NCBI GenBank assembly: GCA_963822445.1
Contig: CAWGHO010000003.1
Coordinates: forward strand, 1,632,001-1,696,000
Direction: 5' to 3'
From: an uncultured Acidobacteriota bacterium
GTDB taxonomy: Bacteria; Acidobacteriota; Thermoanaerobaculia; Gp7-AA8
DNA length: 64,000 nt
Shown piece by piece: positions 45,704 to 49,613 of this stretch; the stretch's first letter is position 1; each line of letters opens with the position of its first letter. Below the pieces are notes generated by a model that saw nothing but the letters and a program-made list of their open reading frames with translations, had not been told where the DNA came from and ran no database searches. A program made the position numbers and the translations under genes.

Positions 45704-47296
45704 CTAAGCGTCCTGCAATGGCTCCGCGGTCGCCCGCAACGCCTTCTTGTCGAATTTCCCCACCGACGTTTTCGGCACGGCCTCGATGAAGCGGATCTCG
45801 TCCGGAAGCCACCACTTCACGAACTTCTGCGAAAGGTGCTCGAGGATCTCCTCGGAGGAAACCGATTCGCCGGCGCGAGGGACGACGTAGCCCACCGGCC
45901 GCTCCTGCCATTTCGGATGGGGGACGCCGATCACGGCGGCTTCGAGCACTTTCGGGTGGGCCATGATCGCGTTCTCGAGCTCGACCGACGACACCCATTC
46001 GCCGCCCGACTTGATCACGTCCTTGGCCCGGTCGACGATGGTGATGTAGCCGTCGGGCGTGATCGCCGCGACGTCACCGGTCCGGAACCAGCCATCGGCG
46101 GTCATGCGATCCGTGGCCGTGTCGTTGTGATAGCCGTTCGTCACCCAGGGGCCGCGCACCTCCAACTCGCCGAACGCCTCGCCATCCCACGGCAGCTCGC
46201 TGTTCGTCGCGAGATCGGTGATGCGGATCTCCAGGCAGGGGACGGGCGGACCGGCCGTCGCGCGTGCATCCATCGCGTCGCCTTCATGCCAGCTGCGCGG
46301 GCGGGCGATCGAGCCCATCGGCGACGTCTCGGTCATGCCCCAGGCCTGAATGAGATTCAGCCCGCGCGCTTCGTAGGCGGCGATCAGCGAGCGCGGAACC
46401 GCGGAGCCGCCGCAGATGATCTGCCGGATGTTGCCGAGCTTCCGATCGCCCATCTTCGCCAATGCGCCGACCCAGATCGTCGGCACGCCGCTCAGACAGG
46501 TGACCTTCTCCGATTCCGCCAGCGCCAGCACCGCTTCCGGATCACCCATCCAGCGGTCGGGAAAAACGAACGTCGCGCCGGCCATCCCGGCGGCGTACGG
46601 CTGGCCCCAGGCATTCGCGTGAAACATCGGCACGAGCGGCAGGATCACGTCGCTCTCGACCATGCCGATGGTGTCGGTCTGGAGAACGGTCAGCGTGTGC
46701 AGAAAGTTGGAGCGGTGGGTGTAGACCACGCCTTTGGGATGGCCGGTCGTGCCCGACGTGTAGCACATGGCCGCGGGCGCACGCTCATCGAGCTCCGGCC
46801 ACTGATACTGATCGGATTCGTTCGCGATCAGAGTCTCGTAATCGAGATACTTCCCGGCGACGGAAGGATCGTCGCTCATGACGATCACGTGCTTCACGGT
46901 TTCGCAACGGTGGATGAACTTCACCAGCAGCGGCAGCAGAGTGTCGTCCACGATGATCACGGAGTCCGCGGCATCGTTGGCGATGAACGCGAGCTGGTCC
47001 GGCGAGAGCCGCAGATTCAACGTGTGCAGCACGGCGCCCATCAAGGGCACGGAGTAATACAGCTCGAGGTGGCGGTAGTTGTTCCAGGCCAGTGTGGCCA
47101 CGCGATCGCCCTCGCGCACGCCGAGCTTCGCCAGCGCGTTGGCGACTTTCCGCACGCGCCTGGCCATGTCGGCGTAGGTGTAGCGATGAACGCCGCTGGC
47201 CCGCTTGGTGATGACTTCCTTCCGCGAGAACAGCTTCTCCATGCGCCAGAGCACGTGATGAAGCGTGAGCGGGTAGTCCTGCATCGATCCCTGCAT
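45704..47296 (-). CDS. Fatty-acid--CoA ligase (AlkK/ttLC-FACS-like adenylate-forming enzyme)
   Basis: MCYTSGTTGHPKGV, PMFHANAWG, AWGMTE, GWFRTGD, DRAKDVIKSGGEW, KTSVGKFDK; ATG 47296 after GGAGG. Confidence 0.92.
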   Translation of the reverse strand: MQGSMQDYPLTLHHVLWRMEKLFSRKEVITKRASGVHRYTYADMARRVRKVANALAKLGVREGDRVATLAWNNYRHLELYYSVPLMGAVLHTLNLRLSPDQLAFIANDAADSVIIVDDTLLPLLVKFIHRCETVKHVIVMSDDPSVAGKYLDYETLIANESDQYQWPELDERAPAAMCYTSGTTGHPKGVVYTHRSNFLHTLTVLQTDTIGMVESDVILPLVPMFHANAWGQPYAAGMAGATFVFPDRWMGDPEAVLALAESEKVTCLSGVPTIWVGALAKMGDRKLGNIRQIICGGSAVPRSLIAAYEARGLNLIQAWGMTETSPMGSIARPRSWHEGDAMDARATAGPPVPCLEIRITDLATNSELPWDGEAFGELEVRGPWVTNGYHNDTATDRMTADGWFRTGDVAAITPDGYITIVDRAKDVIKSGGEWVSSVELENAIMAHPKVLEAAVIGVPHPKWQERPVGYVVPRAGESVSSEEILEHLSQKFVKWWLPDEIRFIEAVPKTSVGKFDKKALRATAEPLQDA

Positions 47297-47330
47297 GGCG
47301 AGCGACCTCCGGCTGAATTTTGCGAACGGG

Positions 47331-47359
47331 TTGACAGGATAACAAAGGGCGCGTATCGT
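47331..47359 (+). promoter_or_regulatory. Sigma70 promoter for the Met leader/operon
   Basis: TTGACA (47331-47336), 17-nt spacer, TATCGT (47354-47359). Confidence 0.7.
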
Positions 47360-47371
47360 CCGCGGCCAACC

Positions 47372-47434
47372 ATGAGTCATTCATCGCATGCCGCGGTTCG
47401 AATGATGATGCGTCGCCCGGACGCGATCGCGTAG
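47372..47434 (+). CDS. Putative Met-rich leader peptide (MSHSSHAAVRMMMRRPDAIA)
   Basis: ATG 12 nt after the -10 box; ATG ATG ATG at 47402-47410; TAG at 47432; 80 nt upstream of the Met-pathway gene. Confidence 0.7.
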   Translation: MSHSSHAAVRMMMRRPDAIA

Positions 47435-47512
47435 CTACGCGTTTGTAGATCCGGGTCCTCCGCGCTTTTCCCTCCACACAACCTGTAACGCATCGAACTT
47501 TCTGGAGGAAAG
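47396..47512 (+). promoter_or_regulatory. Putative attenuator RNA structure with anti-Shine-Dalgarno
   Basis: CTTTTCCCTCCA (47465-47476) complements SD TGGAGGAAAG (47503-47512); GTTC...GATGCGT over the Met codons complements ACGCATCGAAC (47488-47498); CCCGGA (47416-47421) complements TCCGGG (47450-47455). Confidence 0.55.
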
Positions 47513-47514
47513 TC

Positions 47515-48693
47515 ATGGCCTACCGTTTCGATACCCGTGCAATCCACGCCGGTCAGCACAACGACGTCGCCACCGGCTCCGTCACCACACCGATCCATCA
47601 GACCTCGACCTTCGGGCAGACCGAGCCCGGGCTGAACAAAGGCTTCTGCTACGCGCGCACCGGCAATCCCACGCGCACCGCCCTCGAAGAAAACCTGGCC
47701 GCGCTCGAGAACGCGCGGCACGGGCTCGCATTCGCCAGCGGCATGGCCGCCATTCAGGCGGTGCTGTCCACGCTGAGCAAAGGCGACCACGTCGTCTCGA
47801 CGCAGGACCTGTATGGCGGCGCGTGGCGCATCTTCACCAAAGTCTTCAGCCGCTTCGGCATCGACTTCACCTTCGTCGACACATCCAATCCCGCGGCCAT
47901 CGAAAACGCCATTCGGCCGGAGACGAAACTGCTCTGGCTGGAGACGCCATCCAATCCACTCCTGCGCATCACCGACATCGCCCGCTGCGCCGCGATCGCG
48001 CGCGGCAACGGCATCACCACCGTCGTCGACAACACCTTCGCCACACCTGTGTTGCAACAACCGCTGTCCCTCGGCGCCGACATCGTCGTGCACTCCACCA
48101 CGAAGTACATCAACGGCCATTCCGATGTGATCGGCGGGGGAGTGCTCACCAACGATGACGGCCTGTTCGAAGAGCTGAAGTTCCTGCAGAACGCGATCGG
48201 CGCCGTGCCCGCCCCGCAGGACTGTTTCCTCATCCTCCGCGGCATCAAGACCCTCGGCCTGCGCATGGAGCGGCATTGCTCCAGCGCCGAGCTCCTCACG
48301 CGCTGGCTGCTGGCGAACGATCGCGTGCGGCGCGTCTACTATCCCGGCCTCGTCGATCAACCCGATCACGCCGTGGCCCGCCGGCAGATGAACCGGTTCG
48401 GTGCGATCGTTTCCTTCGAGCTCGATGCCGGACTCGAGGAGACCAGGGCCTTCACGCGCCGTCTGCACCTCTGGACGCTCGCGGAAAGCCTGGGCGGCGT
48501 GAAGAGCCTTTTCTGTCATCCGGCGACGATGACTCACGCGTCGGTCGAGGCCGACGTTCGGCGGAGTGTGGGGATCGGGGACGGTCTGATCCGGCTGTCG
48601 GTGGGGCTCGAAGACGTTCGGGACCTCATCGACGATCTCGAACAGGCCTTTGCCAGGACGGCGCGGTCGAATGCCGAGGAGCGTGTCGCGTGA
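47515..48693 (+). CDS. Cys/Met metabolism PLP-dependent enzyme (cystathionine gamma-synthase/lyase, MetB/MetC-like)
   Basis: TRAIHAG, YARTGNPTR, FASGMAA, ETPSNP, VDNTFATP, HSTTKYINGHSD (PLP Lys), AESLGGV, RLSVGLED. Confidence 0.93.
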   Translation: MAYRFDTRAIHAGQHNDVATGSVTTPIHQTSTFGQTEPGLNKGFCYARTGNPTRTALEENLAALENARHGLAFASGMAAIQAVLSTLSKGDHVVSTQDLYGGAWRIFTKVFSRFGIDFTFVDTSNPAAIENAIRPETKLLWLETPSNPLLRITDIARCAAIARGNGITTVVDNTFATPVLQQPLSLGADIVVHSTTKYINGHSDVIGGGVLTNDDGLFEELKFLQNAIGAVPAPQDCFLILRGIKTLGLRMERHCSSAELLTRWLLANDRVRRVYYPGLVDQPDHAVARRQMNRFGAIVSFELDAGLEETRAFTRRLHLWTLAESLGGVKSLFCHPATMTHASVEADVRRSVGIGDGLIRLSVGLEDVRDLIDDLEQAFARTARSNAEERVA

Positions 48694-49613
48694 GGCGGGT
48701 TCGGATCGGGTTACTGGGTTGCGGAACGGTCGGCGGCGGGTTGGTGAGGCTGGTCGCGCACGAGCGCGACCGCGTCCGCGCGCGATTCGGCGTCGACCTC
48801 GAGATCGGCCGCATTCTGATCCGCGACCCGAAAAAGCCGCGCGCGAACGTCGATCGGAAACTGTTGACGACGAACGCGCTGGACGTCATCGACAGCGACT
48901 GCGATCTGGTCGTCGAGGCCGTGGGCGGCGTTCACGCAGCCGGAACGTTCGTACGGCGCGCCATCCAGCGCGGCCGCCACGTCGTTACCGCCAACAAAGC
49001 CTTGCTGGCGGCCACGGGCGGTGAATTGTTCGCCGCCGCCGCCCGGCAAGGCGTGACCATCGGATTCGAGGCCAGCGTCTGCGGCGGTGTGCCGGTCGTC
49101 GGCGCGCTGCGTCGCGGGCTGGCCGGCGACACCATCGAGAGCATTCGCGGAATCCTGAACGGGACCTCGAATTACGTCCTGTGTCGCATGGACGAGGGTC
49201 TGACGCTCGAACAGGCCGTGGCGCTCGCGCAGCAGAAAGGGTTTGCCGAGGCCGATGCCTCGCTGGACATCGGCGGCCACGATGCGATGCAGAAGTTGAA
49301 GATCCTGGCCGGGCTGGCGTTCAACGAGCCGGTGCGGAGGACGACGGTCGTGGGAATCGAGAGCGCGTCGCGTGCGGGCACTGGCTATGTAGTCCGCCAG
49401 GTCGCCGAGGCGCGGCGCGTTGCCGGCGGCGTGGAGCTGGTGGTCGAGAATCGACGGCTGCCGGCCTCCGATCCGCTGGCCGGCGTGCGGGACGAGCAGA
49501 ATGCAGTCGCCATACGAGGGCGGGCGGTAGGCGAGATCTGGCTGAGCGGACGAGGAGCTGGATCGCTGCCGACAGCCGCAGCCCTGCTTGGCGATATCCT
49601 CAATTTAACATAA
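48690..49613 (+). CDS. hom: Homoserine dehydrogenase, short form without ACT domain
   Basis: GLLGCGTVGGG, HVVTANKAL, FEASVCGGVP, GILNGTSNY, GFAEAD, GRGAGSLPTA; GTG overlaps the upstream TGA. Confidence 0.92.
   Translation: MRRVRIGLLGCGTVGGGLVRLVAHERDRVRARFGVDLEIGRILIRDPKKPRANVDRKLLTTNALDVIDSDCDLVVEAVGGVHAAGTFVRRAIQRGRHVVTANKALLAATGGELFAAAARQGVTIGFEASVCGGVPVVGALRRGLAGDTIESIRGILNGTSNYVLCRMDEGLTLEQAVALAQQKGFAEADASLDIGGHDAMQKLKILAGLAFNEPVRRTTVVGIESASRAGTGYVVRQVAEARRVAGGVELVVENRRLPASDPLAGVRDEQNAVAIRGRAVGEIWLSGRGAGSLPTAAALLGDILNLT

Follow-up and report, generated by a model that had tools for sequence, protein, structure and literature searches.

A candidate methionine-reporting leader peptide upstream of a MetB-type gene in Thermoanaerobaculia

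Attenuation by leader peptides is a textbook mechanism for the amino acids Trp, His, Leu, Thr, Phe and Ile/Val, and mycobacteria provide a demonstrated case for Cys; the known RNA-level controls of methionine genes are S-adenosylmethionine (SAM) riboswitches and T-boxes. Here we analyse a short, methionine-rich open reading frame (ORF) and the RNA leader in which it lies, located upstream of a gene for a cystathionine-gamma-synthase-like enzyme (MetB family) in an uncultured Acidobacteriota bacterium of the class Thermoanaerobaculia. The window, i.e. the whole stretch of DNA that was analysed, comprises 64,000 nucleotides (GenBank assembly GCA_963822445.1, contig CAWGHO010000003.1, positions 1,632,001 to 1,696,000, forward strand). 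We consider it moderately probable that this leader is a ribosome-mediated leader-peptide attenuator reporting methionine supply to the MetB-type gene. Support for this reading comes from sequence analysis, namely the conservation and frame of the ORF, its Met enrichment, a covarying hairpin, the spacing of the elements, anti-Shine-Dalgarno tracts, a spacer resembling a Rho utilisation (rut) site, the presence of a rho gene and the gene context.

In leaders of the tnaC/mgtL type, a ribosome stalled in the leader ORF controls the access of Rho to a C-rich site, and in those of ermC and cat a stalled ribosome melts a hairpin that holds the Shine-Dalgarno (SD) sequence, changing the SD accessibility of the next gene. 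The polycysteine small ORFs of mycobacteria are leaderless, carry their cognate codons near the 3' end and have no intrinsic terminator; according to the accessible part of the report by Canestrari et al., translational control of the downstream gene via SD sequestration is proposed, with the codon tract predicted to pair with the SD region (10.1101/834739). Our literature search, with subscription journals outside its coverage, returned no characterised Met leader peptide, in agreement with an earlier note on this DNA that knew of none. The one prediction found, made for a single genome, is metL of S. lividans, located before metNIQ; the accessible part of PMC8079986 describes it as a leaderless Met-dependent leader with no clear terminator, whose peptide MSTTSDRTPATEATTTPGARCMCRRMCAF has two internal Met residues interleaved with Cys. 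For the Met operons of Actinobacteria no RNA element was found, as far as the accessible text of PMC1262725 goes, and the methionine-matching text of PMC2965389 contains nothing on Met attenuators.

The leader in the window and the gene it precedes comprise the following features.

47331..47359, + strand: predicted sigma-70-type promoter from a consensus scan, TTGACA (47331-36), 17 nt, TATCGT (47354-59)
47372..47434, + strand: predicted near-leaderless leader ORF of 20 codons, MSHSSHAAVRMMMRRPDAIA then stop, its ATG 12 nt past the -10 and without an SD
47399..47413, + strand: conserved Met block CGA AUG AUG AUG CGU (R-M-M-M-R), from the family alignment of leaders
47415..47421, + strand: 5' strand of stem P1, GCCCGGA, inside codons R-P-D of the leader ORF, covarying with the 3' strand
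47423..47446, + strand: inner hairpin P2 (47423-32 paired with 47437-46) of the minimum-free-energy (MFE) fold, with the stop codon UAG (47432-34) at its apex
47450..47456, + strand: 3' strand of P1, UCCGGGU, pairing with 47415-21
47456..47461, + strand: proximal anti-SD UCCUCC, abutting the foot of P1
47465..47476, + strand: distal anti-SD CUUUUCCCUCCA, pairing with UGGAGGAAAG (47503-12) in the whole-leader MFE
47457..47503, + strand: C-rich, G-poor rut-like spacer, assigned from base composition, with the box ACGCAUCGAAC (47488-98)
47504..47517, + strand: SD GGAGGA and start codon of the MetB-like gene (ATG at 47515)
47515..48693, + strand: cystathionine-gamma-synthase-like pyridoxal-phosphate enzyme (MetB family), 392 aa, Pfam PF01053 (Cys_Met_Meta_PP), 497.7 bits

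The promoter, the ORF, the 80 nt between its stop and the MetB-like ATG at 47515, and the sequence tracts had been described in the earlier note, which was made from the letters alone, and all were found where it had placed them. TTGACA/TATCGT is the sole promoter-like site in 47000-47800, with 10/12 matches compared to 0.2 expected in shuffles by the same consensus scan. A corresponding layout, TTGnnn-N17/18-TAnnnN-N8-12-ATG, is present in 63 of 67 unique leaders of the family, the ATG lying 8-12 nt past the -10 without an SD.

The distribution of the leader was determined with a covariance model (R1) built from 32 leaders. One match per genome was obtained in 82 of 124 family genomes, representing 20 of 40 genera (one genome has matches on two contigs). 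When the class was sampled evenly, 35 family genomes were included, and R1 matched 24 of them. A Met-rich upstream ORF with a covarying stem is thus kept across relatives, as the earlier note's reading had implied. The 115 genomes from 16 other families of the class yielded no true R1 copy and one false match at 30 bits, in G149, to the signal peptide of a sulfatase-like protein. A match in G089:C89 was rejected as coding DNA. Within the window's genus, a motif scan found the leader in 24 of 35 genomes, with the window's own genome (G000) counted; a 25th match is coding DNA. Among the 24 other genus genomes sampled, 15 have the MetB-like orthologue (82-86% identity) and 9 have only a 45-55% paralogue. 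The leader accompanies this orthologue in all 16 genomes that have it (G000 included) and occurs in none of the 9 with the paralogue only, which follows another coding region in the upstream regions inspected. Orthologue loci with enough upstream DNA all share the window's arrangement, and every inspected match lies upstream of the same enzyme, beginning M(S/A)YRFDT(L/R)AIHAG. When all species genomes were scanned with a pattern, 110 stretches matched. Among the 80 that were fetched, 23 proved to be leaders, each from a record with Thermoanaerobaculia, Acidobacteria or Acidobacteriota in its title, and the others are chance matches in unrelated taxa. The own genome contains a single leader copy. 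A second MMMRRP string there was not counted, its region being unrelated and neither a promoter nor a Met gene being near, and genus matches with two mismatches (L035 and L056-L059) were discarded as coding DNA. Three genomes in these sets are unpublished: G002 (among the 24 genus leaders), G086 (among the 82 positives) and G138.

The reading frame of the leader ORF is conserved. For each leader the promoter was sought and the first ATG 5-13 nt past the -10 was then taken irrespective of frame, which was possible in 58 of the 67 unique leaders. This ATG is in frame with the Met block, with no stop between, in 58/58 testable leaders, over 11 distinct ATG-to-block spacings ranging from 24 to 72 nt, and the stop codon is located 8 codons past the last Met codon in 62/67. 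The 67 unique peptides are 15-34 aa long, with a variable N-terminal half and constant surroundings of the Met block, and follow the consensus M-(H/S/T)-R-...-M-G-R-M-(M/V/A/I)-M-R-(R/C/S)-P-G-A-x-A-stop. Frame and fixed stop together form the pattern expected of a translated leader, one that an untranslated RNA does not need, and suggest that the ORF is translated. A short, putatively translated ORF within the 5' leader of a gene for amino-acid biosynthesis is the arrangement of leader-peptide attenuators in the broad sense.

The frame also bears on the proposal that the RNA itself is the sensor, i.e. an unrecognised riboswitch or protein-binding leader. In this proposal SAM, Met or a regulator would bind to a unit made up of the 5' tail GGGCCGAAUGRUGAUGCG, the hairpin and the anti-SD and would stabilise SD sequestration, leaving the ORF with an incidental or at most modulatory role. 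An untranslated RNA would have no need of an ATG held in frame over 11 spacings or of a fixed stop position. Furthermore, the hairpin has an apical loop of freely varying length, with insertions of up to about 40 nt, leaving no conserved junction or loop for a binding pocket, and no Rfam family matches: a scan of the whole 64-kb window gave no family at its gathering score, and in 47200-47620 no SAM or T-box family matched at E<=10, the sole two matches being mir-305 and sR38 at 12-14 bits. The lack of a SAM or T-box motif noted earlier is therefore borne out by covariance models. On the other hand, the invariance of the block reaches synonymous sites, the covarying hairpin is directly followed by an anti-SD, as in translational riboswitches, and a SAM-I/IV-like riboswitch is found on the orthologous gene in two sister genera (see below). 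Taken together, we regard an RNA sensor as unlikely.

Methionine is strongly enriched in the leader peptides, with internal Met accounting for 225 of 1453 residues (15.5%) compared to 1.48% in the long ORFs of the genome, although counts across leaders are not phylogenetically independent. The variable N-terminal part contains 53 Met in 714 residues (7.4%). When 86 short ORFs behind a relaxed promoter pattern were collected from the own genome, the leader ORF alone was Met-rich. The first and third codons of the Met run (M1 and M3) are ATG in 67/67 leaders. The middle codon is ATG in 35, GTG in 29, GCA or GCG in 2 and ATC in 1, and 44 leaders have a further ATG three codons ahead of M1. Hence, the Met-rich upstream ORF proposed in the earlier note is conserved, but its strict AUG-AUG-AUG run is not: what is conserved is M-x-M, with M, V, A or I as x, frequently within MGRMxM. 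MMM is present in 23 of 24 leaders of the window's genus and MVM in most other genera, one MVM genus carrying additional upstream Met codons (MSRHTMMSMRRMVMRRPGADA). The enrichment in cognate codons is that of attenuators in the broad sense, with the qualification that the middle codon encodes Met in only 35/67. Both strands of the 6.0-Mb genome together contain the string ATGATGATG 83 times.

Conservation of the block extends to codon choice. The Arg codon before M1 is CGA in 65/65 leaders with Arg at this position, and the Gly codon is GGC in 54/54; in the downstream gene of the same genomes Arg and Gly codons vary freely, one Arg codon being CGT in 31, CGA in 20 and CGC in 12. A role for CGA as a rare codon was rejected, as it makes up 12.6% of the Arg codons in long ORFs and is not especially rare. 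No covarying pairing partner was found for the invariant CGA and GGC codons. Codons 2-5 are complementary to the Met block above chance (mean z = -1.19; z < -1 in 39/60), which could explain part of the nucleotide conservation if the leader were a constitutive expression element, acting through leaderless 5' stabilisation, a pause hairpin or fixed damping without Met sensing, with the Met codons reflecting an RNA constraint. Equilibrium folding shows no switch (see below), as such an element would predict. It is difficult to reconcile with the tenfold Met enrichment, which extends outside the conserved block, with the exclusive association of the leader with a Met-pathway gene in 20 genera, or with its replacement by a SAM-responsive element in two genera, and we consider it distinctly improbable.

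Downstream of the block, the peptide varies non-conservatively (R/P, R/C/S, G/S/D) while the RNA pairs stay; codon sensing therefore fits better than a sequence-specific arrest peptide. In the latter case, the nascent M-x-M-R-x-P-G would stall the ribosome from the exit tunnel on the P1 strand, with or without Met or SAM as cofactor, and Met would matter as a residue rather than as a hungry codon. TnaC provides a precedent for nascent-peptide arrest with Trp as cofactor. The conservation of the block near the C-terminus, with Pro in 67/67 and M1 and M3 invariant, is compatible with arrest, and a stall at the P1 strand would keep the hairpin open for long. R-x-P-G also loosely resembles the RAPG/RAPP cores, which stall when their third codon is in the P site and their fourth in the A site; according to the accessible part of PMC12992588, no residue of the RAPG core of ApcA could be substituted, and RAPP-like cores have a small residue at the second position. 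In contrast, the second residue here is Arg, Cys or Ser, the window itself reads RRPD, and the leaders have R/P-R/C/S-P-G/S/D followed by 4 more codons in place of R-(A/G)-P-(P/G). The residues surrounding Pro (+1 R/P, +2 R/C/S, +4 G/S/D) vary with the RNA pairing and not with peptide chemistry, and the extra Met codons across the variable N-terminus are left unexplained. An arrest peptide hence appears unlikely. The same pattern makes it highly improbable that the 20-residue product is a functional micropeptide co-expressed with MetB: its C-terminal half is conserved, but the N-terminal half varies in both length and sequence, and the non-conservative changes within the conserved half track RNA pairing.

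The hairpin begins 4 bases past the last Met codon, the AUG codons of the run being located at 47402-47410. In the window it folds with -23.1 kcal/mol (z = -2.77), and 1 of 200 shuffles folds as well. Its base, CCCGGA (47416-21) paired with UCCGGG (47450-55), had been suggested in the earlier note and proved to be a real stem that covaries across the family. Six compensated P1 variants are found (CCCGGG:CCCGGG, CCCCGG:CCGGGG, CCCCGG:CUGGGG, CCCGGA:UCCGGG, CCCUGG:CCAGGG and CCCGAG:CUCGGG). In a model-fitted alignment of 68 distinct sequences, which leans towards its own structure, 85.7% of cells pair compared to 27-50% in slid registers, with double changes in 10 of 17 pairs (53 cells); 0/500 shuffles reach any of these measures. 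Double changes occur in 6 of the 7 pairs of P2 in this alignment. A plain MAFFT alignment has 79.2% of cells paired and double changes in 5 pairs (12 cells), the cell count being reached by 0/500 shuffles. Two further pairings picked by eye, of the conserved GGGCC with the junction of the P1 3' strand and the anti-SD, and of the P2 5' strand (CGCGGA) with UCCGCG, were rejected because one-sided variants are uncompensated or the topology is sterically implausible.

In the family alignment the hairpin is followed, 0-2 nt past P1, by (G)UCCCUCC or UCCUCC, the predicted SD partner in most leaders. Both anti-SD tracts put forward in the earlier note are present, with the distal one covering the SD in the window MFE. 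The spacer of the window contains 10.4% G and 41.7% C, and equally skewed windows make up 0.05% of the genome. Family spacers average 41.6% C and 15.3% G (58 leaders with spacers <=70 nt), compared to 32% each for the genome, and the median length of the spacer to the SD is 50 nt. A rho gene is present (722 bits, cut-off 509), and at the sequence level a C-rich, G-poor tract past the leader ORF together with Rho corresponds to Rho-dependent leader attenuators. No U-tailed terminator was detected on the + strand within 47000-47800, in line with the earlier note.

The earlier note had further proposed that the Met-codon region pairs with the box ahead of the SD. In the window, GAUGCGU can indeed pair with ACGCAUC, and GUUC with GAAC, both partners lying in ACGCAUCGAAC. 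This pairing reaches z < -2 in 12/67 leaders, all of the window's genus, and is near zero elsewhere (overall mean z -0.6). It thus stands for the window and its genus, where it may add a genus-specific lock as in the mycobacterial Cys leaders, and was rejected as a family-wide mechanism.

Comparison with the described systems places the leader close to several of them. It resembles the classical trpL, hisL, leuL, thrL, pheL and ilvL leaders in having a short ORF with end-product codons before a biosynthetic gene, the regulatory codons lying just ahead of an RNA structure. It differs from them in that the amino acid is Met, the ORF is probably near-leaderless with its stop at the hairpin apex, and a single covarying hairpin is found in place of the competing antiterminator and terminator hairpins and the intrinsic terminator with U tract of trp/his attenuators. 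With the mycobacterial Cys leaders, as far as the accessible text describes them, it shares a putatively leaderless ORF, cognate codons near the 3' end and the lack of an intrinsic terminator; unlike in those, pairing of the codon tract with the SD region is confined to the window's genus, and the family-wide anti-SD lies beyond the hairpin. The pairing of a regulatory-codon tract with the SD region that defines the mycobacterial type is accordingly not seen across the family. A putatively leaderless short ORF, a proposed Met-dependent leader and the lack of a clear terminator are shared with metL as described in the accessible text, but there is no likeness in sequence or structure, and metL controls a transporter as opposed to a MetB-like gene. 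The C-rich, G-poor spacer and the rho gene recall tnaC/mgtL; here, however, the proposed stall site lies about 50 nt from the spacer and would be adjacent to it only via the hairpin, and Rho dependence is putative. As in ermC/cat, a stall in the leader ORF next to a hairpin is proposed to affect the downstream SD, but the stall would leave the hairpin intact and the SD partner is located on its far side. Judged from these sequence comparisons, the leader most likely works like a leader-peptide attenuator, without competing hairpins, a U-tailed terminator or a family-wide pairing of the mycobacterial type.

We infer that the ORF is translated, that ribosomes stall on its Met codons, and that a ribosome parked there either makes the SD accessible or keeps Rho away. 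As to the direction of control, stalling under Met limitation would turn the operon on, as proposed in the earlier note. Transcription would start a few bases before the leader AUG, with a 70S ribosome loading without an SD. With ample Met-tRNA(Met), the ribosome would traverse the hairpin, terminate and depart, and the RNA would then settle as hairpin plus anti-SD:SD pairing with the C-rich spacer naked, leaving translation blocked and Rho able to terminate (OFF). With scarce Met-tRNA(Met), the ribosome would park on the Met codons at the foot of the intact hairpin, covering the conserved block, and would crowd the anti-SD and the start of the spacer, both brought to the same spot by the hairpin. 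This crowding would leave the SD usable and keep Rho off (ON). While its A site is occupied by a Met codon, the ribosome should leave the hairpin essentially intact, with P1 starting 11-17 nt from the P-site codon, and a ribosome moving on would have to unwind the entire 5' strand of the hairpin. In a less probable relay version of this model, the stalled ribosome would sterically occlude the anti-SD and the first part of the Rho-loading tract, which lie about 35 nt downstream and would be set against it by the hairpin, and the invariant CGA-AUG context would tune the stall.

Our best guess is that the parked ribosome occludes the anti-SD, Rho loading, or both. It is possible, though doubtful, that this would be the first Met-sensing leader peptide and that the mechanism would be new for any amino acid, the ribosome docking at the foot of a hairpin without melting it. 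If the attenuator reading is correct, ribosome-based sensing would be extended to Met, and the phylum, in which gene regulation has hardly been explored, would gain a defined, testable element. The unusual architecture, with no terminator, a stall site outside the hairpin and an anti-SD at its foot, makes the coupling mechanism a worthwhile question in itself.

Several observations weigh against the attenuator reading. The Met run is not conserved as such, M-V-M being present in 29/67 leaders, and two Met codons make a thin sensor. Synonymous-site conservation of the block implies a constraint at the RNA or codon level that lies outside the model. Met limitation also limits initiator tRNA, which could lower loading of the leaderless ORF. 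Covariation between anti-SD and SD is weak, cognate pairs averaging -13.9 kcal/mol compared to -13.5 kcal/mol for non-cognate pairs (192/5000 permutations). P1 is not returned by RNAalifold from either the MAFFT or the fitted alignment; the program gave an invariant mini-hairpin (GCGYC/GRCGC) with part of P2, and the anti-SD:SD pairs. The support for P1 therefore consists of single-sequence MFEs and pair counts. No mutually exclusive second structure supported by covariation was found family-wide, so that the sole robust difference between the states of the attenuator model is the ribosome parked at the hairpin foot. Finally, the organisms of this family are known solely as assemblies.

Nor is a switch reproduced by equilibrium folding with a masked ribosome footprint, a check that the earlier note had suggested. 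With a 28-nt footprint masked in 61 leaders, the cost of opening the SD is 8.4 kcal/mol for the free leader, 8.2, 8.5 and 7.2 kcal/mol with the ribosome at M1, M2 and M3, respectively, and 7.6 kcal/mol at the stop. The cost drops by at most 1.3 kcal/mol, and a footprint at M3 lowers it by more than 3 kcal/mol in 6/61 leaders, with the limitation that nested-structure folding cannot model sterics, kinetics or pseudoknots. Folding of the leaders of the window's genus led to the same result. As the SD is not consistently opened, a simple thermodynamic translational switch was rejected.

The invariant mini-hairpin GCGYC-GCCCG-GRCGC (47412-47426; alignment columns 21-35) overlaps the 5' strand of P1 and is mutually exclusive with it. 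A G-to-A change in the window, which places Asp for Gly in the peptide, keeps both the mini-hairpin pairing (U-A) and P1 (A-U). The mini-hairpin could be a transient co-transcriptional fold.

SAM-type elements are found on the Met genes of these organisms. Five family genomes without the leader were checked: four lack the orthologue, and the fifth, the unpublished G138, has a 68% orthologue preceded by a SAM-I/IV-like element (L249/L258; 40.9 bits, gathering score 41.1). A similar element (L259; 40.2 bits) precedes a 65% orthologue in G052. Family-wide, the SAM-I/IV scan gave matches in 5 of 124 genomes, the other three being G135, G015 and G061. The SAM-I/IV riboswitch (RF01725) thus occupies the same place before the orthologous gene in two sister genera and is a functional counterpart of the leader for Met/SAM feedback with SD sequestration. 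It differs from the leader in sensing the metabolite directly and without an ORF, and there is no match in sequence or structure between them; the leader gives no covariance-model match to a SAM riboswitch or T-box. The presence of a SAM-type element suggests that the gene is SAM-repressed in these relatives and hence biosynthetic. In the own genome no SAM-I and no SAM-I/IV match was found, and two SAM-II-like (RF00521) elements score 32.5 and 28.6 bits, under the gathering score of 36.

G000:C2:1057926-1057999, - strand: SAM-II-like element L261, before a homocysteine S-methyltransferase/MTHFR fusion gene
G000:C2:959019-959093, + strand: SAM-II-like element L262, before a MetH-like gene (S-methyl_trans + Pterin_bind)

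Both probably represent true SAM riboswitches, belonging to a divergent acidobacterial type. A hairpin and U-run terminator lies behind each of them, showing that the organism has U-tailed terminators where it terminates intrinsically, and the absence of a terminator at the leader is therefore meaningful. The SAM-II-like and SAM-I/IV-like elements together place the pathway under RNA-level feedback. If the leader acts as proposed, Met-tRNA charging (via the leader on metB) and SAM level (via the SAM-II-like elements on methionine synthase genes) would be read separately within one regulon.

The genes flanking the leader and the MetB-like gene are as follows.

48690..49613, + strand: homoserine dehydrogenase, 307 aa, without the C-terminal ACT region (PRK06349 positions 2-318 of 430)
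45704..47296, - strand: AMP-binding acyl-CoA ligase, a divergent gene sharing a 217-nt intergenic region with the leader

For the MetB-like enzyme itself, the nearest NCBIfam model is PRK07811, cystathionine gamma-synthase, at 508.2 bits, under its cut-off of 513. Its stop overlaps the start of the homoserine dehydrogenase gene (GTGA). Homoserine dehydrogenase follows the gene at 30 of 53 loci, duplicates counted, and elsewhere an LptF/G-like gene comes directly; the regulated unit is therefore the MetB-like gene. The dehydrogenase lacks the ACT region and follows the MetB-like gene only in some members of the genus; it may be an isoenzyme specific to the Met branch. Among the NCBIfam models for the acyl-CoA ligase, 3-(methylthio)propionyl-CoA ligase ranks second (599 bits, cut-off 822). 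Its divergent arrangement is not general, the upstream DNA differing among the genus relatives inspected.

In soil metatranscriptomes, two runs contain small shares of the stretch (0.05 and 0.04), both as contigs lacking end and strand information. A 182-nt contig of run X2 (7 differences, 1 gap) spans 47337-47517, beginning directly past the -35 and ending with the MetB-like start codon. Because part of it lies ahead of the predicted transcription start, DNA carry-over or a transcript from elsewhere is possible.

One genus (L216, L230 and L231) has a longer leader ORF, MHRFAVPAMMMMRRPGASDVCRG then stop, with the stop codon abutting the 3' strand of P1. In this genus the spacer and its SD lead into a second ORF, which starts MHRP and is poorly conserved, and in L230 the MetB-like gene is located only about 330 nt after it; the longer leader and the MHRP ORF may constitute a two-step relay. 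Inverted tandem arrays of heptamer-like repeats, e.g. GGATTGA/TCAATCC, GAAATTG and GAAATCC, are found upstream of the paralogue in L019, L022 and L024. The same arrays are located between the leader spacer and the SD in two genomes (L215 and L230), and they look like a REP-like family of intergenic repeats.

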